Shown here: piece after piece, positions 8,137 through 34,682 of the stretch | How positions within the stretch are numbered: position 1 is the first letter of the stretch | Layout of the letters: each line of letters starts with the position of its first letter | Virus record (IMG/VR): IMGVR_UViG_3300025723_000013 | Length of the DNA: 64,000 nucleotides | Strand: one strand, 5' to 3' | DNA from: a virus | Lineage: Duplodnaviria; Caudoviricetes | Notes under the pieces: generated by a model | What the model was told of the DNA's origin: nothing | Database searches by the model: none | Seen by the model: the letters and a program-made list of their open reading frames with translations, nothing else | Program-made: the position numbers and the translations under genes

Positions 8137-8154
8137 AAGGAGTAAATATAGCTA

Positions 8155-11115: not shown

Positions 11116-11699
11116 TCAACTTCGATCTGCGGAACTTTTTTCTTAGATTTTGGAGGATCTAATTTATCTGCTTCCTTGCGTAAATGGGTAGCCTCTGTGT
11201 AAAGTGCATCAGCTCTAGCTCGCATCTCTTCTGGTGTCAAGTCAAACTTAGCTTTATCGCTTGATACCGATTCGTTAACAGGGCTTTTCTTCTTATTACG
11301 TGAAGGCTTTTCCGCATTTTCGTCTTTGACTGCTAAATCTTCAACGCTAACGCCTTTTTGTTGAGCAATAATCTTGTTGAGCTCATCCAAAGGAATTTGA
11401 GATTGGCTGTCAGGAGTCATAAGAACCATGTGGGTAGGTACTTTTTTTAAATGACCCTGACTATGCAAATATCCTAACATAACACTGCCGTCTGGAAATC
11501 TCCTAGTGGCCAAAACATCGGCCAGTTCGTTAGACTGCTGAGCAGTTTCACTTTCAATCAAACTCATCAAGCTGTCATGAAATGCATCTGCCAATCCCTG
11601 AGTACCCACTACCAGAGCAGAAGTTGCATCTCCTGGTAGAGTTCTATAAACCACAGCTAATCTCGCTGAGTTATTTTTCATTTTACCAACATGTTTCAT
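11112..11699 (-). CDS. Hypothetical phage protein
   Basis: 195-aa ORF with SD AAGGA; charged helical C-terminus. Confidence 0.75.
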   Translation of the reverse strand: MKHVGKMKNNSARLAVVYRTLPGDATSALVVGTQGLADAFHDSLMSLIESETAQQSNELADVLATRRFPDGSVMLGYLHSQGHLKKVPTHMVLMTPDSQSQIPLDELNKIIAQQKGVSVEDLAVKDENAEKPSRNKKKSPVNESVSSDKAKFDLTPEEMRARADALYTEATHLRKEADKLDPPKSKKKVPQIEVE

Positions 11700-12299: not shown

Positions 12300-13547
12300 T
12301 TACTTGTAATGCGCGGTTTGACCAAATGGAGCAGTAATAGAATCACTGCCGTGAATGATGAATAAAGTTTCGCAATAATCTTCATCACCCCACCCGCCGC
12401 CGGGTTGACCGTCGGTAAACATGATAAAACGTTTGGGTTCGATTCCATGTTCTTTCATAAATTCCCAATTGGCTTCAAACAAAGTACCGCCGCCGCCTTT
12501 GACTTCATACTCTAAAATTTCATCAGCATTATCACCAGTAAATTTGGCATAATTATAAACTCGTGTATCAAAACACCATAGATCCAATTTAAAATCAACG
12601 TATTCGTCCATGATGCCTTTGACTTCGCTAATCATTTCTTTGGCCTGAGTGTTGGTAATACTGCCACTCATATCAAAAGCCACTGCAACATCGATTGTTT
12701 CTTCGTTCATCATACCGGGCAATATTGCACCACTGTGCTGACTTTTACGATTGGGTCGAGAAAAACTGAAATTATTTTTTATGATGCTTTGAATATTCAT
12801 GCGCAACATCTGCCGCCAATCCATTTTAGGTTCAGTAAAATCTGAAATCATGCGACGTATACCTTCGGGAATCTTACCAGCACCCGCACTTTGCGCAGCG
12901 GCTACCATGGCTTCTTTAATTTCATCTCGAATTTGTTTACGTTCTTCGGCGGTTAGTTTAGGACGACCTCCGGATCCATCTGTACTACCGTCATCGCCGC
13001 CGCCACTATTTTCACCATCTAGATGTTCATCTAATAGCTCGCCCAATTGTTCAAAATCAATCTTTGGAGCTTTTTGATATAATTCATCATAGACCTGTTC
13101 ATAACTCCAGCCTCTATATTTGTTATCTTGGAAAATTTTGATAAAAGAAGGTACTTCGCCAATACGTTCATCTTTGCAGATTTGATTAACAGTATAATCT
13201 GCTGCGATGTTTGAAAGTACCGGATCTCGACTACTTCGTCGACCAAGATGATCAAATACATTATGCAGTACTTCATGAGCAAAACAAAATTCTGCTTCTT
13301 TTGGTTTGATTTTATTAACAAATTCATTGTTGTAATAAAACTTACGTCCATCCGTGGCCACAGTTGACAGCCATTCGCTGGCATCAATCAGTGTAAGACG
13401 GGTGGCCATATTGCCAAAGAATGGATGTCTTAGCAATAGACCGATACGTGCAGTTACAAGTTTTTCAACGATTTTATTTTTTTCTGCATTGGAAAATTCT
13501 CTCGTCTTGGTTTTTTTAACCTTTTCTTGTTTCATAATAGTGGTCAT
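12300..13547 (-). CDS. Metallopeptidase-like plus VWA domain protein (DUF2201-type partner of the AAA+ ATPase)
   Basis: HEXXH (AHEVLH) in the N-terminal half; Gly-rich linker; MIDAS-like DMSGS, GGGGT and FTDG motifs. Start could be a few codons downstream. Confidence 0.85.
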   Translation of the reverse strand: MTTIMKQEKVKKTKTREFSNAEKNKIVEKLVTARIGLLLRHPFFGNMATRLTLIDASEWLSTVATDGRKFYYNNEFVNKIKPKEAEFCFAHEVLHNVFDHLGRRSSRDPVLSNIAADYTVNQICKDERIGEVPSFIKIFQDNKYRGWSYEQVYDELYQKAPKIDFEQLGELLDEHLDGENSGGGDDGSTDGSGGRPKLTAEERKQIRDEIKEAMVAAAQSAGAGKIPEGIRRMISDFTEPKMDWRQMLRMNIQSIIKNNFSFSRPNRKSQHSGAILPGMMNEETIDVAVAFDMSGSITNTQAKEMISEVKGIMDEYVDFKLDLWCFDTRVYNYAKFTGDNADEILEYEVKGGGGTLFEANWEFMKEHGIEPKRFIMFTDGQPGGGWGDEDYCETLFIIHGSDSITAPFGQTAHYK

Positions 13548-13581
13548 AAAATTACCTATTCTTGTTTATAAAGTTATTAAT

Positions 13582-13608
13582 GATAAAAGGGGCTTTGCCC
13601 CTTTTATC
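13582..13608. terminator. Bidirectional terminator-like hairpin between the AAA+ and VWA genes
   Basis: Perfect 12-bp inverted repeat GATAAAAGGGGC-TTT-GCCCCTTTTATC directly after the ATPase stop. Confidence 0.75.
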
Positions 13609-14691
13609 TTATCCTTCCATTGCTTGGATAATAAATTTTCCATATTTGGCATGAAACTCATCAAAGTTTTTAAGTTTACTGGCATCAAACGGCAAGTTAT
13701 AATTGGTCAATGCAATTTTTGCGCCCATCACTGTTAATTCGGTTGGAAAATTGTCCATCATAAAACGAAAGAAATTATCGGCCATTACATCCCAATTTTT
13801 TACTTTCTTTTTATCGGATTCTTGCAGTTCATAGCACATGCTGATATTCAAAGAATACATAGCAGATACTTCTTTGATAGAGCATTTTTGCACCTTGCCT
13901 AATAAAATATCTGTTGGATTAGGCATCTGTTTAGCAACTTTTCGATGTGCCATAAATTTAACAGCAAGTCCTTCGCCCACTGCTCCTGCAATCAAATCAG
14001 TTAGTGTGCCTTCGTCAAGATCGTCATCCTCGAGAAGATTGCTCACAAAAGTCCAACTACGCGGAGTTGCAAATGCTCGACTTGCACTTTTTGGTTCAAA
14101 ATCATAAAGATCCTGTTTGGCAAAGCTGAGATATCCAACCACTTGCTCGTGAATCTTGTTATTGGTCGCCCAATTGAGATAATCCTCAAAATCAGTACGA
14201 AGTTCCACGTGCAAGAAACGATTTGCCAACGGAGCCGGCATACGATATGTAACACCTTTATCAGTTTCTCGATTACCAGCAGCAACAATGCTAACACCGT
14301 CGGGTAACTTATAGGTACCAACACGGCGGTTAAGAATTAATTGATAAGCAGCAGCCTGTGTGGCAGGAGCTGCAGAGTTCAGCTCGTCTAAAAATAAAAT
14401 TGCTGTACTATCAGGATCTGTAGGAAGTTCTACAGGTGGAGCCCAACACATCGTGCCTAGTTTGGAATTAAAGTAAGGAATTCCTTTAACATCAGTGGGT
14501 TCCCACAGACTCAAACGAACATCAATCACTTCTCGACCTTGTTCTTCGCCTACCTGTTGAACAATTTCGCTTTTACCGATACCAGGAGGTCCCCATAAAA
14601 ATACTGGACGTTTGATTTTGATACATTTACGAATGCTTTTTTTAGCTTCGTTAGGGCTAACTGTGCGATTTGCGGAAATTTTTTCTGCCAT
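13609..14691 (-). CDS. MoxR/dynein-related AAA+ ATPase
   Basis: Walker A GPPGIGKS, Walker B LFLDELN, AAGNR, arginine finger PLANRF, FATPRSW. Confidence 0.9.
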   Translation of the reverse strand: MAEKISANRTVSPNEAKKSIRKCIKIKRPVFLWGPPGIGKSEIVQQVGEEQGREVIDVRLSLWEPTDVKGIPYFNSKLGTMCWAPPVELPTDPDSTAILFLDELNSAAPATQAAAYQLILNRRVGTYKLPDGVSIVAAGNRETDKGVTYRMPAPLANRFLHVELRTDFEDYLNWATNNKIHEQVVGYLSFAKQDLYDFEPKSASRAFATPRSWTFVSNLLEDDDLDEGTLTDLIAGAVGEGLAVKFMAHRKVAKQMPNPTDILLGKVQKCSIKEVSAMYSLNISMCYELQESDKKKVKNWDVMADNFFRFMMDNFPTELTVMGAKIALTNYNLPFDASKLKNFDEFHAKYGKFIIQAMEG

Positions 14692-16212: not shown

Positions 16213-17202
16213 TTAATATGATTGATATTTGGCATTTAATGCTTCAACATAGCTGTCAATTTGCTCTGTTATTTTTACTAAACTATAAGAATTACAAAAC
16301 TTCAATAATCGTATTCCTACCTGACCAACATTTTTATTTTGATTTCGAGCATTATCTATTGTCTCTTTGATAACTGCTTTAATTTCTTCGGGCTGTGCGG
16401 TTAGATCGCACAATTGAACATTTCTTTGATAATCTTTAATCACCTGATGCTCAACTCCTTCGTGATCAGTCCAGCGTTGGAGCATTAAATTATTCCAATT
16501 GTATCCTTTAGAATTCCTATCTGCATACGCCTCTTGCAATCCAACTTTATTTTTAGTGCCTTTGGTTCTTACGCCGGGATATGCGCTAAAGATATTGTCG
16601 CTGGTGTCTCCGCGCATGCATTTTTCAAAAAGTAACCACTCTGGATCCGGCGCTGTTTTTTCCGCATTGGTTTTCTTATCTACAACGGGCTTGCCTTTTT
16701 CGTCAAAATAACCTTCATGAGTAATAGTTACTCCGCTTATTCCGTTATACTGACGAACATTAGGCGCCACTAATTGTGCAAAATCACCATCGGTACTAAT
16801 GATAACATGATCCTTGTCTGGATGTGACTGTATCCATCCAGCAATGAGATCATCGGCTTCCAATTGTGGATGCTGTAACACAGTACAATTCGTTTTATCT
16901 TTAACAAAGTCTTTAAATTGATCAAATGTTTCCCAAAAAATACGATCTTCTTCGGCTTCTTTGGGACTTTGTGCGGCACGCGCTTCGGTACGCTGTCTTT
17001 TATAAGGCGGGTAAATATCTTTACGCCAAGATCTTCCTTCTAGACAAAAAACCACATGACTTCCATTAAAATCTTTCCAACTTTTCCTAATACTGGTCAA
17101 GATGGTGTGTATGCTCATGCCAACTTTGTCATCCAAACTTCCCCATGTGGCGTGTCTGGCGCGAAAGAATGTGTTAGCTGTATCTACAAGAATATATGTC
17201 AT
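16213..17202 (-). CDS. rnh: 5'-3' exonuclease / T4 RNase H-like flap nuclease
   Basis: Motifs LVDTAN, SWRKDIYPPYK, LEADDLIA, STDGDFAQL, GDTSDNI. Confidence 0.9.
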   Translation of the reverse strand: MTYILVDTANTFFRARHATWGSLDDKVGMSIHTILTSIRKSWKDFNGSHVVFCLEGRSWRKDIYPPYKRQRTEARAAQSPKEAEEDRIFWETFDQFKDFVKDKTNCTVLQHPQLEADDLIAGWIQSHPDKDHVIISTDGDFAQLVAPNVRQYNGISGVTITHEGYFDEKGKPVVDKKTNAEKTAPDPEWLLFEKCMRGDTSDNIFSAYPGVRTKGTKNKVGLQEAYADRNSKGYNWNNLMLQRWTDHEGVEHQVIKDYQRNVQLCDLTAQPEEIKAVIKETIDNARNQNKNVGQVGIRLLKFCNSYSLVKITEQIDSYVEALNAKYQSY

Positions 17203-17688: not shown

Positions 17689-17940
17689 CTATCGATGAAA
17701 TCGACCTTTGCTATGATCAACCATTTTGTGCACTTCAGGACCCTGACTCACAAAGTCCATGCCGGCAGATCTACCTTCATAAATCCTGCCATTCCACGTC
17801 ATGGGTAATTTAATAGTGTTATTGATAATAACCGTCATCTTATCTTGATGTTTAAAAAAGATAACTTCTGCATCAACAGCTTTTCCGTTCTTTTCCTGAG
17901 TAACTTTACAATTTTTGTCGTGCCGATAAGAATCCATCAT
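17689..17940 (-). CDS. Hypothetical small phage protein
   Basis: ATG at 17940 overlaps the queE stop (ATGA); about 83 aa. Confidence 0.6.
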   Translation of the reverse strand: MMDSYRHDKNCKVTQEKNGKAVDAEVIFFKHQDKMTVIINNTIKLPMTWNGRIYEGRSAGMDFVSQGPEVHKMVDHSKGRFHR

Positions 17941-18809
17941 GTTCCCCAAGCATTTCCAAATAGATCGCATTGCAGTCTTGGACTATAACGCCAGCCTTGA
18001 CTCATGGCATATTCTGCCACTTGACGATTATTCATTTCATATGTTTCCACAGTTCCGCCTACTGGCATCAAGTAGACTGGGCACAAAACATCAGCTTGGC
18101 GATAAGCTTCCACAGCACGATTAACATCGACCAAATCATCAGTATTGGCAACAACAAACTTAAGATACAGATTGCTACCACCATTAATAGATAAATCATA
18201 GTAAGATTTAACAACGTAAGGCTGAATCGCTTCCTCCCAATTCTCACCGCTAACCGTGAGTTTCGGGCTGCAGGACCAGGTGATGTGTAAATTGTTTCTT
18301 TGTTGTAGATAATCGGAAAAATCCTTGTGAAGCTTTTGAGTTGCATTTGTTTCAAATGTGAGATTTTTTAGATCTCGCATGCCTTCGTGTTCTAATAGGT
18401 CAATATAACTGCGTTGCCAGCCCAATAAAGGTTCGCCTCCGGTTATAACCAAGTGTATATCTTGACCGTTTGGTTGTGTCCACTGATTATTTGGTATCAA
18501 TTGTAATAAGCGTTCTACAATGGCGTCCGTATCATTTTTAATTGCAAATTTTTTAAATTCTGAATATACACTTGAATATGAATCACATCCGGTTTTAACT
18601 AGCGGAAGATCATCAAATGTTTTATATTGATCAATATTTTCAATTATTTTCTCAACTTCAGGATTTTTATCTTGGATAACTTTTGAAGAACGACCAAATG
18701 ATTTACATTTAAAATTGCAACCAAAGGTTCTAAAAAAAACACTAGGAATACCGGTCCATACTCCTTCACCTTGCAATGAATAAAATGTCTCTGTATAATG
18801 TATTTTCAT
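17937..18809 (-). CDS. queE: 7-carboxy-7-deazaguanine synthase (radical SAM)
   Basis: ETFYSLQGEG, FFRTFGCNFKC...GCDS (split CxxxC..C), VITGGEP, FETN, SPK, LMPVGG, SPRLQ. Likely start MKIHY at 18809. Confidence 0.92.
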   Translation of the reverse strand: MKIHYTETFYSLQGEGVWTGIPSVFFRTFGCNFKCKSFGRSSKVIQDKNPEVEKIIENIDQYKTFDDLPLVKTGCDSYSSVYSEFKKFAIKNDTDAIVERLLQLIPNNQWTQPNGQDIHLVITGGEPLLGWQRSYIDLLEHEGMRDLKNLTFETNATQKLHKDFSDYLQQRNNLHITWSCSPKLTVSGENWEEAIQPYVVKSYYDLSINGGSNLYLKFVVANTDDLVDVNRAVEAYRQADVLCPVYLMPVGGTVETYEMNNRQVAEYAMSQGWRYSPRLQCDLFGNAWGT

Positions 18810-18813
18810 TTTT

Positions 18814-19587
18814 TTACCTTTTAACTGTTTTAATTCCGTATTCTTCAAAAGTTAGTCCGACAAAATCTGTAAATTCTGGATGAATTAATACAAATATTTT
18901 ACTAATTATAGCATTTCTATTAATTACAATCAACGTATTTTTTGAAAATGTCGGATATAATTTTAACAAATCTATACTTCCTTCGCAGTATCCTTTTGGA
19001 GTTTCATATGCGTATTTTGATGCTGCTAAACTCCTAATTCTTGATCCTTTTTTAACATTTCTTTTTTTCCGAGCAGCAAGTGTTTTTTTTAATTTTGTTT
19101 CGATAGAATCTTTTCTTCCCTTTGCAATTGCTGCATAAAGCACACCGTTATATTTTTCAAATAGTTTTTTAGGTATTCTTGCAACTTCTTCTGTGATTAA
19201 ATGTTTTGCTACTACTGTATTTTTACTATATTGGCTAACTATTTTTGAGTGTTTTTCTCTGATATAGGAGTACACTCTATTAGTAATTTTATAATTTCTT
19301 CCAGAATGAATAGAATAAATCATTTTATGCAATGCCTTTATCATTTTAGGATTATTGGTAGCTTTTGCTAATAAAAGATGTGCGATAAAATGATGTCTAG
19401 CACTTAATTTAATTAAATTAGTTCCTTCTGTTCCTCCAATAGATCGAGGAACAATATGATGCATTTCGGTATATCCGGAAAAATTAATAGTTTTACAGAT
19501 TTCTATGAATTTAATATATCGTTCAATTAAAAGTATTTTAGGATTATGAGAATATTTTAACAAATATATTTTAAGGTCGTTAGACAT
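18814..19587 (-). CDS. Free-standing HNH homing endonuclease-like protein
   Basis: TEMHHIVPRSIGG..NLIKLSARHHFIAHLLL; Lys-rich NUMOD-like tail; SD GGAG at 19600-19597. Confidence 0.85.
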   Translation of the reverse strand: MSNDLKIYLLKYSHNPKILLIERYIKFIEICKTINFSGYTEMHHIVPRSIGGTEGTNLIKLSARHHFIAHLLLAKATNNPKMIKALHKMIYSIHSGRNYKITNRVYSYIREKHSKIVSQYSKNTVVAKHLITEEVARIPKKLFEKYNGVLYAAIAKGRKDSIETKLKKTLAARKKRNVKKGSRIRSLAASKYAYETPKGYCEGSIDLLKLYPTFSKNTLIVINRNAIISKIFVLIHPEFTDFVGLTFEEYGIKTVKR

Positions 19588-19596
19588 TAGATTTTA

Positions 19597-19670
19597 CTCC
19601 AGTAAAGTAGTAGAAGGCTATCTGTGTTACTGGTACAGAAGGATGATCAGTCCTTTCGCCTTCTACCACT
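19597..19670 (-). ncRNA. Putative structured RNA leader (three-way junction plus SD-pairing pseudoknot) of the HNH gene
   Basis: 13-bp P1 (one G.U), two inner hairpins, and loop CCAGUAA complementary to UUACUGG overlapping the SD. See findings. Confidence 0.6.
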
Positions 19671-20088
19671 TATTTATTTTAACATTATCTAAATTTGGAT
19701 CATGATAATTTCCTTTTCCTGGGATAACGTGCCTTACTCCACCTCTAGGATTGTCTACATCGCCAAATTTCCTTGGAATAAGATGCACATGCGGCCACAT
19801 CACAGTTTGTCCTGCAGCCTCGCCATAATTAATTCCTATATTGAATCCATCCCATACTTGATTTGTTACTTGATCTTTTCCATAACGAACAGCATCTTCA
19901 AATGCGTCATTTAGAATGTAGATACTATTATATCTTGGAACAAAAAGCAAATGTCCTTCACTTACCGGAAATTTATCTCGATATATGATCACATGAAAAT
20001 CTTCACGGAAAACATCTTTCCAAGGAACGTTTGCATCCTCAATCACTGCTGGTCCATCAAAAATCCTATCTACATCGATATTTGTCAT
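19663..20088 (-). CDS. HIT family nucleotide hydrolase
   Basis: DKFPVSEGHLLFVPR, GFNIGIN.GEAAGQTV, histidine triad WPHVHLIPR. Likely start at 20088. Confidence 0.92.
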   Translation of the reverse strand: MTNIDVDRIFDGPAVIEDANVPWKDVFREDFHVIIYRDKFPVSEGHLLFVPRYNSIYILNDAFEDAVRYGKDQVTNQVWDGFNIGINYGEAAGQTVMWPHVHLIPRKFGDVDNPRGGVRHVIPGKGNYHDPNLDNVKINKW

Positions 20089-20089
20089 G

Positions 20090-20620
20090 CTATTTCCACC
20101 ATACTTCGTAAGGAAATTCAATCCAAACATTGTCGTTGGATTTGTTGATCTCCATTCCCACAAAATCCATACTTACTTTACATTTGCTATCAAGATTATC
20201 TACTATCACTGCAAATTTAACATTGTTATTCCAAATATTATCCCATCGCTCAACAGAGCATATTCCCGTCTGCCAGTCGTTTATAATCCAATTAAACGTA
20301 GCACCACTATCGTTAATGTCATCCACGATCAGCATGTTTTTTGGAGCATCCATGTCGTAGCCATATGCGTCCTCGGCCATGGCACCATGACTGACACAGA
20401 TTCCTCCGTCGCGCAAACTGACTTCTAGAGGCTGCATAGGGATATCAAAATAATGACTGATCATGGTAGCGGCCATTAGTCCTCCGCGGCTGATTCCTAC
20501 CACGTAGTCAGGACGCCAACTGCTGTTTACAATTTGCCGGCATAGATCCGATACCAAATTTTCATATTGATCGTAAGTTAATCTTAATTTTTTAGTATTA
20601 GCCGACGACATTTTAGCCAT
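20090..20620 (-). CDS. Type I phosphoribosyltransferase (Gpt/xanthine-guanine PRT-like)
   Basis: PDYVVGISRGGL and PRPP-binding loop LIVDDINDSGAT; C-terminal WIEFPYE. Confidence 0.88.
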   Translation of the reverse strand: MAKMSSANTKKLRLTYDQYENLVSDLCRQIVNSSWRPDYVVGISRGGLMAATMISHYFDIPMQPLEVSLRDGGICVSHGAMAEDAYGYDMDAPKNMLIVDDINDSGATFNWIINDWQTGICSVERWDNIWNNNVKFAVIVDNLDSKCKVSMDFVGMEINKSNDNVWIEFPYEVWWK

Positions 20621-21305
20621 GTCCTTTCATGGAAAGACAAATATCATAAAATTCTTTTTTCAATGCAGGATCACTGTTAAACGCACCCAACATGATAGCA
20701 GTAGTCATGTCGCTTTCATGTTCTCGAACTCCTCGCTGTGTCATGCAGTGATGTTCTGCCTTTACTACCACTGCAATATGCTCTGTCTTGGCATACTCTC
20801 GCAACGCATCTGCGATTTGTGTAGTCATTTCTTCTTGTATCTGCGGACGTTCACAGATATGATGCACCAGTCTATTGAATTTACTGAGACCAATAACATC
20901 ATCTTGTGGAACAATGCCAACCCAACATTTTCCAACGATATTTTGAAAATGATGCGCACATGTTGAACGGATGCTGATAGGACCAGTGGTATATAAACTT
21001 TTGTAACCCATGTTGGGAAAAGCAGTGATTTTAGGAACTGCTCGATAACGTCCGCTAAAAGTTTCCTTGATAAACATTTTGGCCACACGACGCGCAGTGT
21101 CTTTGGTATTATGATCATTGTCAATGTCGATCACCAAAGATTTTAACACGCCCTGCATCTTTTCTGCCACTTCTTTTACTAATTGTTCAAGTTCTTCGTC
21201 GTCCTTGATAAACTCAGAAATGTTATCATTGCTGTGATAACGAGCGCCAGAGAGTTCAACTCGATTTCTAATAATATCGCTTATGTTTTGCATTTTTTCC
21301 TCCAT
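20613..21305 (-). CDS. folE: GTP cyclohydrolase I
   Basis: STCAHHF, GLSKFNR, RPQIQEEMT, AEHHCMTQRGV. Confidence 0.96.
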   Translation of the reverse strand: MEEKMQNISDIIRNRVELSGARYHSNDNISEFIKDDEELEQLVKEVAEKMQGVLKSLVIDIDNDHNTKDTARRVAKMFIKETFSGRYRAVPKITAFPNMGYKSLYTTGPISIRSTCAHHFQNIVGKCWVGIVPQDDVIGLSKFNRLVHHICERPQIQEEMTTQIADALREYAKTEHIAVVVKAEHHCMTQRGVREHESDMTTAIMLGAFNSDPALKKEFYDICLSMKGHG

Positions 21306-21310
21306 TGCCT

Positions 21311-21353
21311 ATAATAGCAAAGATATTTAGGCAAAGTCAAATCTGCCTAAATA
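21311..21353 (-). promoter_or_regulatory. Composite folE upstream element: sigma70-like promoter, TAAATA motif and 10-bp inverted repeat
   Basis: TTGACT (21340-21335), 18 nt, TATTAT (21316-21311); inverted repeat TATTTAGGCA (21324-21333) / TGCCTAAATA (21344-21353). Confidence 0.5.
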
Positions 21354-21360
21354 AATTGTG

Positions 21361-22548
21361 TTAAAATTTGTGTTCTCTATTATGTTTACGATAATCGGTA
21401 GACATGCGTAACCACTGTTCGCCGTTGCCTTCAATGATATCAACAATTCGATCAATGGTTTTATCAGTCCAATCGCTAATCTTGCCCATACCGGTGTGAG
21501 GATTTTGCAGCAGGATTTTTAATTTATCAATTGCGTCATCAATGGACCAGGGCGTGTACAAACGTGTATAATCATTGGAAAAAGTTTCTGGAAAACTGCG
21601 ATAAGCAGGATACAGCACATTGCATCCTAGGGTATCTGCTTCAGATACAGTATTAGATACCCAATCTTGCAACGCACAATTAAATAGAACACGAGTATCA
21701 TTGAGCAAATCATAGTAAGAATTCTTTTCTAAGTCCTCGTAAACAGTGAGCAAGTTTCGCTGTTGCAATTCGCGTGTGCGAGACATATAACTTTCATTAT
21801 TAGATCTAAGTTTAGAACCAGAAAAAACTGCAAACTCTACACTAGGCAAACTCATTGAATGCCATTTTTCAATCAAATCCATATAGAAGTCTGGCTGTTT
21901 TTCTTGATCCCAACGGGCAGCAAATCCAACTCGCATGGTTCGCTCATGGAAAGGTTTGATTTGATTGTTGACTCTTTCAAGCACCTCTGTTTTACCAAAA
22001 GCCAGTCCTGAAATGTTATAGATTGGAGCCGTCCATCCTGCAACCTTCATGTGCATGACCATTTCTTCGTTGGATGCAAGGACCGCTCCTTTGGAAATGC
22101 TAACAATTTCGTTAACCATGCGCTCGTAATCGCCCATCCATTTCTGCAATCCCCAGACATGAACAAAATCATCAGGATCAATTGATTGCGCAAGACAACG
22201 TACAAAAATACGAGGACGCATATTTTCAGGAATTTGGTTGATAATATATCCCAAACTTTCAAAGCCGGGTTGAAACATATCTTCAAAGTAAATAACATCG
22301 TCGCTGTTAACTTCACCCTGCTGCATCAGTCGTACAAGATTCATCATTTGACTCATACTAAAATAAGATCGACCGTGTGCATCAAGCACTTGCCCGACAA
22401 CGATTTTTTGACTGCTATCCAGGGTAAGACCCGGAACATATGACACAGTAAGTCCGCGTCGGTTAAAAACTCTGGTGTTCCATTCACTTAATTGTAAAGT
22501 ATAACGGGCTTGATAGGATTCAAGCCCCATATAATATAATTGTCTCAT
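21361..22548 (-). CDS. GT-B fold glycosyltransferase embedded in the 7-deazaguanine cluster
   Basis: RVGFAARWDQEKQP (donor-binding R...K), DWVSNTVSEADTLGCNVLYP (E-x7-E-like region of retaining GT-B enzymes), PWSIDDAIDKL; 395 aa. Confidence 0.85.
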   Translation of the reverse strand: MRQLYYMGLESYQARYTLQLSEWNTRVFNRRGLTVSYVPGLTLDSSQKIVVGQVLDAHGRSYFSMSQMMNLVRLMQQGEVNSDDVIYFEDMFQPGFESLGYIINQIPENMRPRIFVRCLAQSIDPDDFVHVWGLQKWMGDYERMVNEIVSISKGAVLASNEEMVMHMKVAGWTAPIYNISGLAFGKTEVLERVNNQIKPFHERTMRVGFAARWDQEKQPDFYMDLIEKWHSMSLPSVEFAVFSGSKLRSNNESYMSRTRELQQRNLLTVYEDLEKNSYYDLLNDTRVLFNCALQDWVSNTVSEADTLGCNVLYPAYRSFPETFSNDYTRLYTPWSIDDAIDKLKILLQNPHTGMGKISDWTDKTIDRIVDIIEGNGEQWLRMSTDYRKHNREHKF

Positions 22549-22550
22549 TG

Positions 22551-22832
22551 TTAATTCTTCTTGATATAAGATTTACGATCTTGATTATTGGAAAACTTTG
22601 CATCTGAACGATCCTTATTGTGAGATCGATCTCGATAATCTCTATTTGATTTTCCAGACTGAGATTTTTGAAAGTAACGGTATTCCTTGGATCTATATAA
22701 ATCCGAAGGATTGAATGGAAGTAGATTAAATCTACAGTGATCATGCCATGCTTCGAGATCTTCGAAGATCCTGGTTACTTCCGGTTTCATACGCGAAGAT
22801 TTATAGTTATTGTTGTAATTGCTGTTTGACAT
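22551..22832 (-). CDS. Hypothetical protein with basic/polar low-complexity tail
   Basis: 93-aa ORF, SD AAGGA, tightly packed in the cluster. Confidence 0.65.
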   Translation of the reverse strand: MSNSNYNNNYKSSRMKPEVTRIFEDLEAWHDHCRFNLLPFNPSDLYRSKEYRYFQKSQSGKSNRDYRDRSHNKDRSDAKFSNNQDRKSYIKKN

Positions 22833-22855
22833 TTTTACTTCCTTATTTTTAAGGT

Positions 22856-23227
22856 TTATAGATGTGTTGGAAATTGAATGAAGCAGCCATTCTCGCCATC
22901 TTCACTCACGGAAATCCAAACCTCACGGATTGGATATCGTGCGTTAATTGTGTGATAAAGATCACGTGCAATCATTTCGCAGGATTTATAGTTAAGCTCA
23001 AGTGTGCCATTGGAGTAGCAGCTCTCAAGCCAACGTTTAAACTGGATAAATTCTAAGTCTCGATCATCATGATACACCTCAATCCATACCTTGAAATGAA
23101 AGATATGACGATGTGGATAACTTAGAAAACTAACATCCTCTAATTCCGGGGAGGTAGCCGCGCCGGGATATCGATGTATACCTTCTTTTTGGAAGGTTAC
23201 CCAAATCATTGATTTTTCTTTATTCAT
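22856..23227 (-). CDS. T-fold QueD/PTPS-like protein with LxxxHRHxF motif (DpdL-like or atypical QueD)
   Basis: EGIH...FLSYPHRHIF...SCEMIA...VSEDGENG; lacks the QueD CxxxHGH signature. Confidence 0.75.
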   Translation of the reverse strand: MNKEKSMIWVTFQKEGIHRYPGAATSPELEDVSFLSYPHRHIFHFKVWIEVYHDDRDLEFIQFKRWLESCYSNGTLELNYKSCEMIARDLYHTINARYPIREVWISVSEDGENGCFIQFPTHL

Positions 23228-23732
23228 TGACTGTTTCTCGCAAAGTGTCTGAAATATAAAAACTTAATTCTTCGTAGTTAAAAGCGGTATCAAAATTATT
23301 TAAAATTAAATTTTTAAGATACGGGTATGCAATTTTTTCTCCAGGAATATTGAGTGTACAACATTTGCTGTTCGGCGATGAATACTTTTCTGGCAATTTA
23401 ATTTTTTTAATTTTCAGTTTGTATTCTGAAATAATAGCATTTACTATGACAACTATATGACTTTCGGATATATTATATAATTCTGTGGCACTACTTCCTA
23501 ATAAAAATTTTGCCGATCTTGTGTATGCAAAATTTTTAAAAACTCTTTCAAGCATTGTTATATCAGTAAATTCGCCAAAGTAAAGATGACTCAAATAAAA
23601 ATATTTTGATGTATATTTTTGCCTGGCTCTTACCACCGAGTGAGGAGTTATTCCTACTCCTATTTTATTCCACGACGTGTCCCCTGCCATATCCGGATGG
23701 ATATAGAAAAAGGGACTTACATTCTTTTTCAT
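23220..23732 (-). CDS. Putative GIY-YIG-superfamily (T5orf172-like) nuclease
   Basis: FFYI-x10-NKIG, downstream R and LERVFK glutamate; AT-rich; overlaps both neighbours. Confidence 0.5.
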   Translation of the reverse strand: MKKNVSPFFYIHPDMAGDTSWNKIGVGITPHSVVRARQKYTSKYFYLSHLYFGEFTDITMLERVFKNFAYTRSAKFLLGSSATELYNISESHIVVIVNAIISEYKLKIKKIKLPEKYSSPNSKCCTLNIPGEKIAYPYLKNLILNNFDTAFNYEELSFYISDTLRETVNE

Positions 23733-24253
23733 TTAATTACCTCATCGTTTTTATATTGAAACCAATTGGTGAATGTATCTCTGCTCATCAAACTCTGCAG
23801 ACTGTGTGTCCAAACGCCGGGATTTGTAGAATCAAAATCTTTATCATCAATTTTGATCATGGTATTATAATTCCACAGCTTGAGATAAGGTATTGGAATA
23901 CGAATTTGTGGAATAAAATTATTATAGTTGTTTAACCCGCCGTCGTTGAATTCTTCTACAGCCGACAGTGGGATATCTAAAGTGCACCAAAAATCTTTTT
24001 CAAGAAAGGCAGAAATCATTTTCTCCCATGCACGCCATTCGTCGGCATTGTTATAGGCAGGATTAAAACTGTGATTGGCACCAAAGAAAATATGCTTGCA
24101 GCCATTGAATAGTGTTTTTTCATATATGGATTCAAATGAATGTAACCCTACTACAAACAATGTTTTCATTCCGTAGGCAGGAGTTTTTTCAACTTCTATT
24201 CCTACAAAAAACATCACGTCATCGGATTCGCCGGATTCATAATATCTTTTCAT
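23729..24253 (-). CDS. Uncharacterised protein of the deazaguanine cluster
   Basis: 174-aa ORF next to the DpdA-like gene; motifs FFVGIEVEKTP, HIFFGANHSF, KIDDKDFDSTNPGVW. Confidence 0.75.
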   Translation of the reverse strand: MKRYYESGESDDVMFFVGIEVEKTPAYGMKTLFVVGLHSFESIYEKTLFNGCKHIFFGANHSFNPAYNNADEWRAWEKMISAFLEKDFWCTLDIPLSAVEEFNDGGLNNYNNFIPQIRIPIPYLKLWNYNTMIKIDDKDFDSTNPGVWTHSLQSLMSRDTFTNWFQYKNDEVIK

Positions 24254-24258
24254 TATTT

Positions 24259-24287
24259 AATATACTATCTTTAATATTAATTGTCAA
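24259..24287 (-). promoter_or_regulatory. sigma70-type promoter giving a probably leaderless mRNA for the 174-aa gene
   Basis: TTGACA (24287-24282), 17 nt, TATATT (24264-24259); predicted +1 falls about at the ATG (24253). Confidence 0.65.
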
Positions 24288-25833
24288 CACTATTTTCCAA
24301 GGCTCTCAAGGCGTCATCCTCGGGATTATTTAAATCTATTTCTTCAACCTTGGTAACTTCGTCGATTTGAAATAAATTGCTAAAAGCATTATCACTTTTT
24401 CCGTCTGTAGTGTTTCTTGCACCTGCTAGATTAATTAAAAATGCCTTAGCAGTGGGATGTTCCAGCATTTCCATAGCCTCACTTAAATTTTTAGTTGCAA
24501 ATAATTCTTCTACAAAACGATCAAAATAAAGAATGTTTCTTGGAACCCATTCGCTATATTGATCACTGGAAAGATCTTTATCCTTTAATTTTTTCCAATG
24601 ACGCCAATCGGGACGGAATCTAGCGCGTTCAATATCCATCAATTGATTGGCACGTTGGACCGCAGCTATATGACAATAAACGTTGTGTCCCATCATTAGT
24701 GCATAGGAAAAACTATCCCATGACGTTTTTCCTTCTTTGCCAATTTTATTCAGCATCCCTGGGGCGTAATGACAAATATCTCCAATAGTTAATCTGCGTC
24801 CAAATTCGCTTTCAAAAGGAAAAGGAATATCAGATTTTGACAATGCTTTGTTATCAGGAGCTTTATCCATTACTACTCCAAATTTCTTGGCAGTATGGCG
24901 TGCGTTTGTATAAACCAGTCCGTGTGCGGTAGCTACAAAGGGACTGGCACAGTCAAAACTAATTGTGAGATTTTCATTGACAGTCTGTCTAATCTGTCTT
25001 TGTATAGAAGTTAAAAAACAAGCCCAGTCTAGCTGTGCTGTACCTAGGCAGTGTATCCAATTTTTATCTTGTAAAAATCCTTCTTCTCTCATGATCATCA
25101 AGCGTTTGAGAGTAATGTCCATTTTGCTCATATTAACACCGCCAAATGCCCACCCTTCGGCAGCACGATCTCCCCAAACTTTTGGATCACTGAATTCTTT
25201 TACTCCTTCGTACCAAGTTTGTGCACTGATCCAGTCACTGCCTTGTAGTACATTGAGCCATTTTGTTTTACCCGATGAATTTTTTAAAAAATATTCATTG
25301 TTGTATCTTGTTTTTTCCAAGCAATCCTGTGGACTTGTTAGCCCGGTTCTGGCAGTATTGTTTTTATCACATGCCCAAATAGGTACATCCAACATCATGG
25401 ACCAATCGGCGGTAAGCTCTAACCATGCGATAATATCATCTCTTACTTTATTGGCAGCAGGACCCTGGAAATTTAACCAATCAAATTTTAGAATTCCTTT
25501 TCCAATTTGATATCCGCCAGAGTCTCCTAGGATCATGGTGTTATTACGATCTCGTTTCTGTATCATGGATTCCTGGACTAGGCTTTTTTTGAGATCCAAT
25601 TGAGCATGCCCTGCAGAATATAATGCATACTTGTAGGTAAAATAGCCTTCTTCTGGATTGAGAAAATTCATGCCTTCAATTCCTCGATCAAAATCCTTAG
25701 GAATACGATCTAGAGGCACAAATTCCTCCAAACGCTGCTTGGCAATATATGTGCTATAAAAACTACTAATTGCTGGAAGATATACAGAATAGTCTTTTTG
25801 TAGTGGTGTTAAATCTACTGGTGGTCTTTTCAT
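24277..25833 (-). CDS. dpdA: TGT-fold guanine transglycosylase, DpdA-like (7-deazaguanine insertion into DNA)
   Basis: TGT motifs in order: GDSGGYQ, MMLDVP, VLQG, WAFGG, WIHCLG, SFDCASP, GHNV. 518 aa; clustered with folE/queE and adjacent to the clamp and polymerase. Confidence 0.8.
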   Translation of the reverse strand: MKRPPVDLTPLQKDYSVYLPAISSFYSTYIAKQRLEEFVPLDRIPKDFDRGIEGMNFLNPEEGYFTYKYALYSAGHAQLDLKKSLVQESMIQKRDRNNTMILGDSGGYQIGKGILKFDWLNFQGPAANKVRDDIIAWLELTADWSMMLDVPIWACDKNNTARTGLTSPQDCLEKTRYNNEYFLKNSSGKTKWLNVLQGSDWISAQTWYEGVKEFSDPKVWGDRAAEGWAFGGVNMSKMDITLKRLMIMREEGFLQDKNWIHCLGTAQLDWACFLTSIQRQIRQTVNENLTISFDCASPFVATAHGLVYTNARHTAKKFGVVMDKAPDNKALSKSDIPFPFESEFGRRLTIGDICHYAPGMLNKIGKEGKTSWDSFSYALMMGHNVYCHIAAVQRANQLMDIERARFRPDWRHWKKLKDKDLSSDQYSEWVPRNILYFDRFVEELFATKNLSEAMEMLEHPTAKAFLINLAGARNTTDGKSDNAFSNLFQIDEVTKVEEIDLNNPEDDALRALENSVDN

Positions 25834-25835
25834 TT

Positions 25836-26570
25836 TTACGCCTGTGCTGGAATAATATATTTGTAAGTTGCTAAACCGCTATCCATTGTGATCTGCAAAG
25901 CCCCGGCATCGCTGATGCTTAATTTACAGTTATTGACATCGGCAATTTTTAACACGCTTAGGATGGCAGCAATTGGCCATGTGTGAGAACGTGACAGCTT
26001 TCCTGTAACGTTGTTTGCAAATACAAACTCACCGCCGTGTGTGCTATGATCGCCAAAAATAAATTTTAAGTTATTTCCTTCAATTTTAGGAAGAAATGTT
26101 GTATGCTCGCTATTAGCACCGGCCTGAAAGCTAAACCGCTGCACGGATTGCAAGGTAGGAGTTACTTCAACATCCCAATTAGCTCCGCGGAATTTTACTG
26201 TTTTTAATTTTTCATTAATAATTTCGGTATTCATAAATCGATAGTCATTTTTAAAATCGCCATTTTTATTTTCAAAATGAATGCCAACAGGCACTTTTAC
26301 TCCATTACGATTGTCTGTAATAATATCAAGTTTGGCATCTTCTTTATATTCATCGCCGTCAAGCAGATATTTAAGTTTGTTAAGTTGAGGCATACCAAAC
26401 ACACCAATCATTTCCGGATATGGATTGTTGGTTTCTCCATACATGATAAGAGATCTGTCGTCGCTCATGGCATCGATCTTGGTAGATGTTTTATCTCCAG
26501 TAATTTTTACAATGTTTAAAAAACCTAAACTATGAGTATGACTCACGATATCTTGTAGAATTTCTTTCAT
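25836..26570 (-). CDS. Probable DNA sliding clamp (gp45/PCNA-like)
   Basis: 244 aa, clamp-like beta/alpha periodicity, ends 'GALQITMDSGLATYKYIIPA', immediately downstream of polB; clamp loader elsewhere in the window. Inference from size, position and pattern. Confidence 0.6.
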   Translation of the reverse strand: MKEILQDIVSHTHSLGFLNIVKITGDKTSTKIDAMSDDRSLIMYGETNNPYPEMIGVFGMPQLNKLKYLLDGDEYKEDAKLDIITDNRNGVKVPVGIHFENKNGDFKNDYRFMNTEIINEKLKTVKFRGANWDVEVTPTLQSVQRFSFQAGANSEHTTFLPKIEGNNLKFIFGDHSTHGGEFVFANNVTGKLSRSHTWPIAAILSVLKIADVNNCKLSISDAGALQITMDSGLATYKYIIPAQA

Positions 26571-26624: not shown

Positions 26625-29327
26625 TTATTCAAAGCTAAACAAACTGCTAAACGTATTTTCTTGAGTGGTAGATTCTAGATCCCAATCCAGTACACCGATC
26701 AAATTGTCTAGTTTATTATTAATGATAGCCGATTCCATGGCAGAATGATCAAATGGCAGTTCTTGAAACCACTTGGGTAATCTCAATTCGTCAACCGGAT
26801 ACGCAACGCTGGTAAAGCCAATGGGATTATCTTTAAGTTTGCAAACAATCACCTTCATTCCGTCCACGATTTGCATTGAATACTTGTCGCCATTCATGCG
26901 TCTTAGCGTATTCCAATTGATAGATGCTCTAACATGTCCGGGCATGTTTGCTTTACCTGCTTTTTCTTCCTTGATTTGATATTCAGCAATGTTGTTGGCA
27001 CGTTTAGGACTACCTTTTTCCCAACCCGGGCGTGCCTTGAACTCTGTGCGAAATTCTGAAATCATGTCTAAGATTTCTTTTTCTCCAGAACCGTTCAATA
27101 CTTTATTTAGAATTTCACTAAGGAAGTTTTGCATAAATTCTGGAGTGTCACTTCTTTTAAGATCCAACCCCATGGCTTTGATCTTGCCAGGTTTTCCATC
27201 AATGTCTTGACGTTTTCCGTCTTTGTCATAATAAAGCACAGCATATCTTTTCTTGGTAATGAATAGCCCTTTAATAGCAACGATTTCTCTGCCTGCCCGT
27301 ATAACATCTCCTCGCTTTTTGGGTGTATGAAAGGCATCCAACATCATTTGCGGAAATGTTGAATTAACTTCTTCAGCCACTGTATTATACAGTTGTATCA
27401 CCGTGTCCTTATCCCAAGGCAACAGTCCTTTTTGTATTTCATTTTTTAAGGTAGTGTAGGCAGTAAAATAGGCACTGTCAGTGTCGCCGTAAATAATAGC
27501 CTTGCCAACATGATCATATTCACCGGTGATTATTTCGTTGATCTTGGCCGCCATGTGTTTTGCGATTCTACGACCCGTGAGCGTGGTAGATTGTCCGATC
27601 CTGTTATCAAAAAATCTGCATCCAGCATTGAGAATAGCTCCGTATAGGCTGTTGAGATTGATCTTTTTCACTAGCTGACGTTTATCCCAATATTCCTCTT
27701 GGATTTTATTTCCAGCATCAATGGCTTCTTTGAGCTTTTTCTGCATTTCTTTACGTTCTTTATACCAACGCGCAAGCAAGCCTGGAATAATTCCTTCTTT
27801 TTCAAACGTAAAAATAGTGCCGTTAGCACTTAGTACCCAGGGGTTATTGCTTTCAAAAATCAATTCGTAAATTTGTGCGCCACTCAGCATGTCATGCCGC
27901 CCATCTTCCCAGTCGATGATGATTTCTTTTACTCGATCCTTGGACATGACCAGTTCATATTCATTGCTGCCGAATTTTCCTTCCCAAGCCAGAGCAAATT
28001 TACCACCATTTTTTGCCATCTTGGTTTCAATTTCTAACTTGGTATACTGTTGTCGCAATTGGCCTATAATGGTTTCTGGGCCCATGTTTAATGCGCGAAT
28101 TACGGAAGGATATAGACTGTTGATGTCCATGGATCCAATCCAATCATGTAATCCTTTTTTAGGATAGGCTACATATGCGCCCGCAGCTTTATCATCTGTT
28201 GAACTATTTTCTTCGTCATCATCGATAGATTCTTTGTCTTTTTTTGCTCGACTTGGGACGATTAATCCCAAGTGATGTGCTTCGTTGATAATTGCCTGTT
28301 CGGTCACTGCCACGGCGCCCATGGTAGTTTTGAGTAGCACAGTGTTTTCGTGAGCAATGCTGTTGGCCAAATCAATAAATTTTAATTTTTTATCTAGTTT
28401 ATCTAGCAGTGCGCAGTCTTGCCTATTATATTCAATAAATTTGCGAAAATCATTATTATAAAGTTGATCAAGTGTACCTTCATAGACCGTTTTAGTTTCA
28501 CCTAATTCATAGTCTGCAATGGCATCGAGACGATAACTGTGACGTTCTTCGTATGTGTACTTTCTATAAAGCTCTAGGCTGTCCAGATGTACCCGGCCTA
28601 CCAAATCATATGTCATGGCTGCCTTGCCGTATTTTTCATATTCTCGCTTTTTAGGCATTTGATCCCATAGACAAAATCTACGTGTATCTTCTTTACTAAG
28701 TACCTTGATTACTCGATTAACGGTATAAGGTATATCAAACCCTTCGCTGTTCCATCCGCTGAGTACATCAGCATCGTCGATGAGATTTAAAAACGTGTCC
28801 AACATTTCATATTCTGTTTCAAACAGCATGGTGTTAGGAAATTCTTTTACCTGCTCTTCGGCCTCTGCCATGGTTAATGTTTTAGGCGGTACAGCAAGAC
28901 ATACCAGAGTATCCAACCATTGTAAATGCACAGCGATCGCGGTGATTGGCATAAATGCATCGCTTGGACTAGCATATCCACGTTCTGGATCAAAATCTAC
29001 CTCAATATCAAAGAACGCTACGTTAAGTTTTGGAGCATCTTTTCCTAGATAGTTTTCTTCAAGACATCGAAAAATGGGATTCATATCGCTTTCAAAAAGT
29101 TTGCGATTTCCATGTATGCGTTGTTCCTTGGTATGCTCTTTCCAACTCTTAGATACAACCTTGACCAATGACTGACCAAAGATACTTGTGTATTTGCCTT
29201 TGGGATCTGGATAATAGAAAAGATATCTTGCTGGATATGTTTGATATATTCGACCTTTGATAGGATCACGTTCAACGACATTGACAATATCGCTGTCACG
29301 ATCCCATAAGGAATCTACGTAACTCAT
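26625..29327 (-). CDS. Family B DNA polymerase (T4 gp43-like) with 3'-5' exonuclease
   Basis: Exo FDIEVD, GWNSEGFD, YNRQD; polymerase DINSLYPS, KINLNSLYG, YGDTDS, KKRY, GLDLKRSD. Confidence 0.97.
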   Translation of the reverse strand: MSYVDSLWDRDSDIVNVVERDPIKGRIYQTYPARYLFYYPDPKGKYTSIFGQSLVKVVSKSWKEHTKEQRIHGNRKLFESDMNPIFRCLEENYLGKDAPKLNVAFFDIEVDFDPERGYASPSDAFMPITAIAVHLQWLDTLVCLAVPPKTLTMAEAEEQVKEFPNTMLFETEYEMLDTFLNLIDDADVLSGWNSEGFDIPYTVNRVIKVLSKEDTRRFCLWDQMPKKREYEKYGKAAMTYDLVGRVHLDSLELYRKYTYEERHSYRLDAIADYELGETKTVYEGTLDQLYNNDFRKFIEYNRQDCALLDKLDKKLKFIDLANSIAHENTVLLKTTMGAVAVTEQAIINEAHHLGLIVPSRAKKDKESIDDDEENSSTDDKAAGAYVAYPKKGLHDWIGSMDINSLYPSVIRALNMGPETIIGQLRQQYTKLEIETKMAKNGGKFALAWEGKFGSNEYELVMSKDRVKEIIIDWEDGRHDMLSGAQIYELIFESNNPWVLSANGTIFTFEKEGIIPGLLARWYKERKEMQKKLKEAIDAGNKIQEEYWDKRQLVKKINLNSLYGAILNAGCRFFDNRIGQSTTLTGRRIAKHMAAKINEIITGEYDHVGKAIIYGDTDSAYFTAYTTLKNEIQKGLLPWDKDTVIQLYNTVAEEVNSTFPQMMLDAFHTPKKRGDVIRAGREIVAIKGLFITKKRYAVLYYDKDGKRQDIDGKPGKIKAMGLDLKRSDTPEFMQNFLSEILNKVLNGSGEKEILDMISEFRTEFKARPGWEKGSPKRANNIAEYQIKEEKAGKANMPGHVRASINWNTLRRMNGDKYSMQIVDGMKVIVCKLKDNPIGFTSVAYPVDELRLPKWFQELPFDHSAMESAIINNKLDNLIGVLDWDLESTTQENTFSSLFSFE

Positions 29328-31530: not shown

Positions 31531-31971
31531 TTATCCTTGTTTAATACTGCTTCTCAAGAACCATTCGTGTTTGAGATGAGCGTTTATTCTTTCAGCAAGG
31601 AAATTGCTTAATCCATGTTCACCTGCAGCCTCTGCGGCATCATAATTTTTCTTTAATATAATCTGCATTTTTTGACTGTCCAAAACAAGTTCTTCAACCA
31701 TTTCTTCCTTGCTAGGAACACGTCCTTCGTCATCAATTTTTGTCAATATATTCATATTGTAATAATTAGCAGGTACATAAGCACCTAATTTGCGGATGTT
31801 TTCGGCATAGGGATCTACAGCTTCATACACTTCTTCATATATTTTTTGGAAAAGTTTGTGAAATTCATAAAAATCAGGTCCTTCCACATTCCAATGAAAT
31901 CCGTGAACTTTTGTATAAAAATTAAAAGTAGCAGCAAGCCCAATACGGGTCAATTGAATAAGTTCGTTCAT
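31531..31971 (-). CDS. dps: Dps (ferritin-like DNA protection protein)
   Basis: HGFHWNVEGPDFYEFHKLF, D..AENIRKLG, HLKHEWFLRS ferroxidase-centre motifs. Confidence 0.92.
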   Translation of the reverse strand: MNELIQLTRIGLAATFNFYTKVHGFHWNVEGPDFYEFHKLFQKIYEEVYEAVDPYAENIRKLGAYVPANYYNMNILTKIDDEGRVPSKEEMVEELVLDSQKMQIILKKNYDAAEAAGEHGLSNFLAERINAHLKHEWFLRSSIKQG

Positions 31972-31972
31972 A

Positions 31973-34255: not shown

Positions 34256-34258
34256 TTT

Positions 34259-34675: not shown

Positions 34676-34682
34676 ATAGTTC

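Follow-up and report, generated by a model that had tools for sequence, protein, structure and literature searches.

The question raised by this locus is which base a phage would place in its DNA when the genes of a 7-deazaguanine pathway enclose one for a glycosyltransferase (GT). The window analysed here (IMG/VR record IMGVR_UViG_3300025723_000013, the whole stretch of 64 kb) stems from a giant phage that has not been cultured and is a relative of PA5oct, a Pseudomonas phage; the searches covered these 64 kb, the window's own contig being 88 kb long. The cluster under study lies at positions 17937-25833 on the minus strand. A first-pass annotation had listed in it eight co-oriented genes, coding for a protein with the fold of tRNA-guanine transglycosylase (TGT), a 174-amino acid protein, a T-fold protein, a GT-B glycosyltransferase, FolE, a phosphoribosyltransferase (PRTase), a histidine triad (HIT) protein and QueE. 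Each of them was confirmed, on the minus strand, and the list is good as far as it goes; three further open reading frames (ORFs) inside the span, for an HNH homing endonuclease, a 170-amino acid ORFan and a 93-amino acid polypeptide, have to be added to it. The cluster is a DpdL-type 7-deazaguanine module located within a block of replication genes (DNA polymerase, clamp, module, RNase H). The earlier interpretation of a QueC-less 7-deazaguanine module with a TGT-fold enzyme and an embedded, apparently active GT is upheld, while the “unknown C7 derivative” that it assigned to the T-fold protein is not. The core of the pathway is the already published DpdL-type route to 2′-deoxy-7-deazaguanosine (dDG); new are the embedded GT, the 174-amino acid protein, the PRTase and the divergent DpdA. 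Gene identities, folds, catalytic motifs and gene linkage are described here. A 7-deazaguanine modification of the phage DNA is very likely present, and the chances that this DNA contains a sugar-bearing derivative are about even.

The T-fold protein (123 amino acids; 22856-23227, minus strand) is DpdL. It matches phrog_17812 (E 1.8e-34) and carries the sequence LSYPHRHIF within residues 35-43, which is the DpdL motif LxxxHRHxF. DpdL was defined as a QueD paralogue in which CxxxHGH is changed to LxxxHRHxF (Cui, Hutinet et al., NAR 2023, PMC10516641), occurring in phages that have DpdA, FolE, QueD and QueE and are devoid of QueC (PMC10516641). The window protein is 35% identical to CGPG_00067 of phage phiST over 114 amino acids (E 3.6e-14; tblastn E 9e-8) and 54-63% identical to the copies found in PA5oct, ACP17, Phosso and RHph_I1_18. 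Since the T-fold protein is DpdL, the core of the pathway is already known: the supposed C7 derivative is largely explained by the published dDG pathway of phiST (FolE, QueD, QueE, DpdL and DpdA3), in whose DNA dG is fully replaced by dDG (302,000 per 10^6 nucleotides; PMC10516641). The two systems share the QueC-less synthesis of 7-carboxy-7-deazaguanine (CDG), DpdL with its LxxxHRHxF signature, a transglycosylase of the TGT superfamily, replication genes as neighbours and an expected core product, 7-deazaguanine in DNA. They differ in the transglycosylase, which has 259 amino acids in phiST and 518 here, in an insertion of about 40 amino acids carried by the window QueE, and in the gene complement, as phiST lacks the GT, the 174-amino acid protein, the PRTase and the HIT gene and has MazG and a kinase-like gene instead. 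In two other phages DpdL was found as the C-terminal domain of a larger protein, namely the 383-amino acid gp176 of Vibrio phage Bakedbeans (9227-10378 of the examined stretch) and a 293-amino acid protein of Chryseobacterium phage MA9V-3 (9431-10312 of the examined stretch). The N-terminal parts have no Pfam match; these fusions might hint at the working partner of DpdL.

The supply of CDG from GTP by FolE, QueD and QueE has firm support at the level of predicted protein families. FolE, the GTP cyclohydrolase I (20613-21305, minus strand), is assigned by PF01227 (E 1.8e-46) and phrog_2197 (E 3.8e-52). QueE, the radical SAM CDG synthase, is encoded by a 303-codon ORF (17937-18848, minus strand) with the motif YSLQGEG; NCBIfam QueE models match it weakly, with E values of 2e-11 to 3e-8 that are all below the cut-offs, and Radical_SAM matches with E 1.8e-5. 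It is 42% identical to QueE of phage BUCT-ZZ01 and 33% identical to that of PA5oct. Its cysteine triad consists of C-x3-C, the inserted segment of about 40 amino acids and then C-D-S, an arrangement that is kept in the aligned relatives. The same insert between the second and third cysteines is present in QueE of PA5oct, BUCT-ZZ01, BUDD and Ahp1, and the compact C-x3-C-x2-C is retained by QueE of phiST, ACP17, Phosso and MA9V-3. The likely initiation codons of queE (ATG 18809) and of the HIT gene (ATG 20088) make the overlaps of these ORFs with neighbouring genes vanish. A scan for the CxxxHGH motif and Pfam scans of most ORFs found no QueC, QueF or canonical QueD in the window, in agreement with the first-pass annotation, and QueC was found neither in the window ORFs scanned nor in PA5oct or BUCT-ZZ01. 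The seemingly missing QueD is located outside the window. The closely related 284-kb contig ERZ27271944:k141_40503, which encodes letter-identical copies of two window proteins, has a PTPS/QueD-family gene about 7 kb past the window's right end; this gene reads C-Y-L-L-H-G-Y in place of CxxxHGH. PA5oct encodes FolE and QueD outside its corresponding block.

Exchange of the base would be carried out by the 518-amino acid protein (24277-25833, minus strand), which we file, on the strength of its predicted fold and of the motif LGDSGGYQ, as a divergent DpdA-like transglycosylase of the TGT superfamily standing outside the Pfam TGT model. The protein has no match in Pfam, PHROG or NCBIfam, and none of the 53 family members collected was matched by the TGT (PF01702) or DUF6610 models at E<=0.01. 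The family was settled by fold search because a search of its sequence profile against the PDB reached only E ~0.8, although 28 of 28 rows were TGTs. The AlphaFold2 (AF2) model, built from a 53-sequence alignment, has a pLDDT of 91. Its best 50 Foldseek matches in the PDB are all tRNA-guanine transglycosylases (E ~2e-7, TM by target ~0.5) and its matches in BFVD include the phage DpdAs of nt-1 (2.9e-9) and Motura (3.6e-13) as well as DpdA3 of phiST, a remote relative (6e-4) reached by fold only. DpdA of ACP17 (gp123) matches the family profile at 9e-7, and the family comprises 870 clusters at 50% identity. Among the 53 homologues D104 (GDSGGYQ) and D294 (SFDCA) are invariant while D149 is kept in at least 90%. 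In the alignment of the profile to TGT the DSGG and LD segments of the family fall on D102 and D156 of the Z. mobilis enzyme, and D294 would correspond to its nucleophile D280 (MFDC/MFDCV), an equivalence read from the FDC motif. The zinc site CxCxxC of canonical TGT is not kept, only the histidine of its HN motif (H383) being aligned.

The context of the transglycosylase (replication block, DpdL and the restriction resistance of PA5oct) points to DNA as its substrate. The block at 16.2-29.3 kb of the window is co-oriented, all on the minus strand. On one side the cluster is flanked by genes for a sliding-clamp-like protein (25836-26570, minus strand) and a family-B DNA polymerase (26625-29327, minus strand), and on the other, after two small ORFs, by the gene of a 5′-3′ exonuclease/RNase H (16213-17202, minus strand). 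A syntenic block is found in PA5oct (Wroclawvirus; EST35_0311-0325), with polymerase, clamp, TGT-like protein (EST35_0316, 41% identity), GT (EST35_0317, 23% identity), DpdL (54% identity), PRTase, QueE and RNase H (53% identity). It lacks the 174-amino acid gene, the HIT gene and FolE, and its genes are annotated as hypothetical. PA5oct DNA resists five restriction enzymes whose recognition sites contain G, and the phage is attacked by END nucleases sensing hypermodified DNA (PMC12191111).

The GT (395 amino acids; 21361-22548, minus strand) is an integral member of the module in this phage. Its surroundings were compared in 80 related IMG/VR loci of one lineage, picked by GT similarity (GT identity 69-88%). 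The GT adjoins DpdL in 79 of them and is near the TGT-like gene in 74, the absences of either partner being mostly due to contig ends; FolE is present in 68 loci, QueE in 43, the 174-amino acid gene in 30, the PRTase in 15 and the HIT gene in 9. The order is nearly constant: polymerase, clamp, TGT-like, (174-amino acid gene), DpdL, GT, FolE, (PRTase), (HIT), QueE. The identities given above for the GT exceed those of its neighbours, which in most loci amount to 55-65% for the polymerase and 33-42% for the TGT-like protein. When the cluster was compared by Megablast with 50,697 phage records, no match was obtained. At the protein level a GT homologue is encoded no more than 10 kb away from DpdL in six cultured lineages (PA5oct, ACP17, BUDD, BCSR5, Phosso and BUCT-ZZ01). 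In ACP17 it is gp124, placed between DpdA and DpdL, in Sinorhizobium phage Phosso it directly follows DpdL, and in the T4-like cyanophage BUCT-ZZ01 it is 60% identical to the window GT. Xanthomonas phage BUDD, Burkholderia phage BCSR5 and ACP17 carry it as the sole copy in their genomes. All 12 phage records with a tblastn match to the GT are also DpdL-positive. A scan of bacterial and archaeal genomes, which reaches close relatives only, detected the family on six contigs of metagenome-assembled genomes (MAGs), all six with the arrangement of the phage module. Cases of the GT independent of the dpdA module were looked for without success at the sensitivity available. The lineage is abundant in metagenomes, with more than 500 IMG/VR contigs.

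The bins from which the six MAG contigs came are Chitinophagales, Haliscomenobacter (two contigs), Rickettsiales, Phycisphaerae and Syntrophomonadaceae (GTDB). The module is probably there through phage contamination of the bins, which give at most weak hints about hosts. In Synechococcus phage BUCT-ZZ01 a second, weak group-1 GT (7010-8353 of the examined stretch; PF13692, E 3e-5) was observed between FolE and the DpdL-GT pair, a hint that this phage may have several sugars.

As modelled, the GT is a retaining GT-B fold enzyme, GT4-like. Its AF2 model has a pLDDT of only 74. The best Foldseek matches in the PDB and AFDB are PimA, BshA, MshA and SenB, with E 1e-9 to the first three, and VIA-align superposes it on BshA with a Z score of 22.5 and an rmsd of 3.5 over 328 aligned residues. 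The corresponding Z scores are 20.9 for the tetrahydrobiopterin glucosyltransferase 5ze7 and 20.2 for T4 alpha-glucosyltransferase with DNA. D295-x7-E303, which differs from the GT4 EX7E motif in having Asp for the first Glu, is invariant in 28 GT homologues together with R212 and K217, the roles of these residues being assigned by sequence position and not by superposition. With these residues invariant, the GT looks active. An identity as a QTMAN-like enzyme was not reproduced: Pfam gave no match (QTMAN_N, PF12038), and the 30 AFDB Swiss-Prot matches listed, dominated by one large family, do not include QTMAN.

A second gene of sugar metabolism type is linked to QueD. On the 284-kb contig QueD is followed, with an overlap of 1 nt, by a 308-codon gene for an extended short-chain dehydrogenase/reductase (SDR; the two genes together at 1974-3427 of the examined stretch), whose best NCBIfam matches are dTDP-glucose 4,6-dehydratase (137 bits), LegB, UDP-xylose synthase and GalE. 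Of 80 loci found with the SDR, 59 have a QueD homologue at most 4 kb upstream of it; across relatives the SDR keeps 72-81% identity versus ~40% for QueD. With the GT beside DpdL and the SDR beside QueD, two genes of sugar-nucleotide type are each tied to a deazaguanine gene.

The alpha- and beta-glucosyltransferases of T4 are likewise phage-encoded GT-B enzymes that decorate an already modified base, as the GT would do here. They have no sequence similarity to it, no hydroxymethylase accompanies the GT, and its acceptor would be a purine analogue without a hydroxyl. A dCMP/dUMP hydroxymethylase, whose presence alongside the GT had been named as refuting the proposal, was not found in the 64-kb window. 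The PF00303 protein encoded there is a full-length canonical ThyA (345 bits, with ALPPCH and PFNIASY), PA5oct has one strong ThyA, and BUCT-ZZ01 is without any PF00303 gene. Glycosylation of a hydroxymethyl-pyrimidine as in T4 was rejected because the ThyA of the 64-kb window is canonical. At 10103-11699 of the window this ThyA is followed by a seemingly broken or split dihydrofolate reductase (DHFR), and on a related contig ThyA is accompanied by a 47-amino acid DHFR_1-like piece and then a 195-amino acid ORF without family.

From these data we infer the reactions, DNA as their target and the sugar. The conversion of GTP to CDG would involve, besides FolE and QueE, a QueD whose gene is located in another part of the genome, and DpdL would then strip the carboxyl group from CDG to give 7-deazaguanine. 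The DpdA-like transglycosylase would swap guanine in the phage DNA for 7-deazaguanine, with possible help from the 174-amino acid protein. The GT would most likely add a sugar from a nucleoside diphosphate (NDP)-sugar to the deazaguanine, acting on the free base prior to its insertion or else on DNA that already contains it, and the PRTase would most plausibly recycle the excised guanine to GMP/GTP, feeding FolE. For this explanation as a whole, a module whose GT puts a sugar on the deazaguanine in DNA, we see the scales as level. We are slightly more reserved about its chemical form, in which a retaining GT-B enzyme would glycosylate, at N2, O6 or C7, the 7-deazaguanine that takes the place of guanine. 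The QueD-linked NDP-sugar dehydratase/epimerase might serve to tailor the sugar; both proteins have homologues by the thousand in metagenomes. As a speculation, the sugar site could be C7, freed by decarboxylation, nucleophilic and exposed in the major groove, which would explain why the GT follows DpdL. For N2 there is a precedent in HuiG of the huimycin pathway (Kutzneria albida), encoded by a GT gene beside homologues of FolE, QueD and QueE, which transfers N-acetylglucosamine to the 2-amino nitrogen of a 7-deazaguanine-type base (PMC7439116); dapiramicins too carry a sugar on the 2-amino group of such a base. HuiG differs in serving the synthesis of a free secondary metabolite out of preQ0, which needs QueC, with an O6-methylated base and no involvement of DNA (PMC7439116). 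In the literature searched, no phage deazaguanine was found described as carrying a sugar.

Several points weigh against a sugar on the base. Plain 7-deazaguanine has no hydroxyl, so that a sugar would need a chemistry at N2, O6 or C7 of which we know no example in DNA. An adduct at N2 is positioned in the minor groove and would be an obstacle to polymerases. The sugar in the GT-carrying phages is deduced from genes and models. No Pfam (including Glycos_transf_1 and Glyco_transf_4), NCBIfam or PHROG model matches the GT at E<=0.01, and since its fold scores tie across dozens of small-molecule enzymes the structure does not reveal the acceptor. The 80 GT-picked loci are not independent and, as one lineage, count as roughly one observation; more weight attaches to the separate cultured lineages. 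Six DpdL-positive phages (phiST, MA9V-3, RHph_I1_18, Ahp1, D479 and Bakedbeans) have no detectable GT anywhere in their genomes, so the GT is an add-on and not required for the core pathway. One step earlier, the function of DpdL as CDG decarboxylase has only been proposed, and attempts to reconstitute it in E. coli with the phiST and ACP17 genes failed (PMC10516641).

The alternative that survives best is a module yielding plain dDG, like that of phiST, with a GT that acts elsewhere, on an intermediate that is later deglycosylated, on a phage or host protein or on an acceptor of the cell envelope. We regard it as unlikely, though serious enough to be kept in view. It accounts for the fact that phiST attains 100% dDG without any GT and for the lack of an obvious acceptor hydroxyl on deazaguanine, and it fits with the nature of the closest structural relatives of the GT (BshA, PimA, MshA, SenB), which act on small molecules or lipids, and with the acidic character of the protein (pI 5.5). 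It leaves without a reason the adjacency of GT and DpdL in six cultured lineages of different backbones, with no GT found outside the module, the second sugar-nucleotide gene tied to QueD and the attack on PA5oct by nucleases that sense hypermodified DNA.

Another route to a modified DNA would operate at the nucleotide level and depends on the PRTase. This is an accessory, Gpt-like protein, encoded at 20090-20620 (minus strand): a type I purine PRTase of the Gpt/XGPRT type (PF00156, E 4.3e-11) with the phosphoribosyl pyrophosphate (PRPP) loop LIVDDINDSGAT, whose best NCBIfam match is xanthine PRTase (1.6e-7). It could join CDG or 7-deazaguanine to PRPP, in the manner of TubE, for conversion to a dNTP and incorporation by the polymerase, leaving the TGT-like protein otherwise employed. 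The tubercidin clusters resemble the module in using CDG without QueC, a PF00156 PRTase (TubE) and a decarboxylation; they differ by a decarboxylase of the UbiD type, where the T-fold DpdL stands here, by a free nucleoside as product and by the absence of a TGT-like enzyme. Purine PRTases in the clusters of this phage, PA5oct and BUCT-ZZ01 would suit such a route, as would the MazG-like gene at 46107-46475 of the window and the pair of MazG and kinase-like genes in the phiST cluster. We consider it improbable, given that the PRTase is found in only 15 of the 80 related loci and is absent from that of ACP17 whereas the TGT-like enzyme is near-universal with all three catalytic or substrate-binding Asp residues kept, that no dGTP-excluding enzyme was identified, and that the best family match of the PRTase is to guanine/xanthine salvage.

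More improbable still is a product that is no DNA base, a pterin glycoside made as an auxiliary metabolite by FolE, the PTPS-family protein, the SDR and the GT, comparable to the tetrahydrobiopterin glucoside of cyanobacteria. FolE, a PTPS-family protein and an SDR all exist in the phage lineage, tetrahydrobiopterin glucosyltransferases are among the structural matches of the GT (5ze7 and 9v0l), and Synechococcus PCC 7942, the host of BUCT-ZZ01, produces biopterin glucoside, which counts in favour of this possibility. The pterin glucosyltransferases, however, score level with some 50 other GT-B enzymes and do not head the list of matches, and the SDR is of the extended NDP-sugar dehydratase/epimerase type, not of the sepiapterin reductase type. 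A pterin product would also leave QueE, DpdL and the TGT-like enzyme unexplained, in a module that sits in a replication block and in a phage group where PA5oct DNA is G-modified. The weakest proposal is that the TGT-fold enzyme modifies tRNA of host or phage: its solved structural relatives are all tRNA enzymes, yet its gene lies between those of the sliding clamp and RNase H and is paired with DpdL, known only from DNA-modifying phages, PA5oct DNA resists enzymes cutting at G sites, phage DpdA2 and DpdA3 proteins are among its nearest structural relatives in viruses, and the canonical zinc site is not kept.

Among the remaining genes of the cluster, the one for the conserved 174-amino acid protein (23729-24253, minus strand) is a recurrent transglycosylase neighbour. 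It is found between the TGT-like gene and DpdL in 30 of the 80 loci and in five of the six MAG-binned phage contigs, and a homologue lies directly upstream of DpdA in ACP17 (gp122, E 1.3e-16). Pfam, PHROG and NCBIfam returned nothing for this protein, an Atlas feature search only sub-noise glycosyltransferase-like rows at 0.77, and a PDB profile search one chance-level match, to picornavirus VP2. The accessory HIT-family protein (19663-20163, minus strand; PF01230, E 1.9e-9) has its histidine triad shortened to HVHLIP. Two of the ORFs added to the list look like insertions into the cluster. The HNH homing endonuclease gene (18814-19587, minus strand; phrog_655, E 1.8e-34; pI 10), a selfish element inserted between queE and the HIT gene, is present in only two of the 80 related loci, at other positions, and the 170-amino acid basic ORFan (23220-23732, minus strand; no family match) is present in none of them, which makes it probably a lineage-specific insertion and not part of the pathway. 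The 93-amino acid basic ORF between DpdL and GT (22551-22832, minus strand), also without family match, occurs at the same position in 14 of the 80 loci.

Outside the replication block, host-like genes for proteostasis and stress are densely packed at 31531-47181 of the window, with ferritin-like (31531-31971), ClpB-like (36224-38500), peptide deformylase (38500-38997), DnaJ (39006-39830), PhoH (44015-44788), MazG/PRA-PH-like (46107-46475) and Cpn10-like (46475-46858) products. A MoxR-type AAA protein and a DUF2201 metallopeptidase/VWA protein are encoded as a pair at 12300-14691. A single ORF of 3717 codons with TIG/Ig-like and cellulase-like matches occupies 49576-60729, and the GC content climbs from ~0.38 to ~0.45 around it.

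All glycosylated DNA bases known to us are pyrimidines (glucosyl- and arabinosyl-hydroxymethylcytosine, glucosyl-hydroxymethyluracil and base J), and the eight phage deazaguanines that we know of all carry small C7 groups. If a sugar is attached as proposed, the base would be without precedent among the purines of natural DNA in bearing a sugar, and would form a new class of DNA base, made by a glycosyltransfer chemistry that would itself have to be new. This could explain why ACP17 DpdL and DpdA failed to be reconstituted in E. coli and why defence nucleases responding to hypermodified DNA recognise PA5oct. The six cultured phages that carry the GT and the six DpdL-positive phages that lack it make the question directly testable. 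A glycosylated deazaguanine would bear on phage therapy with PA5oct-like phages, on the evasion of restriction and other defences, and on the sequencing and base-calling of abundant environmental jumbo phages.

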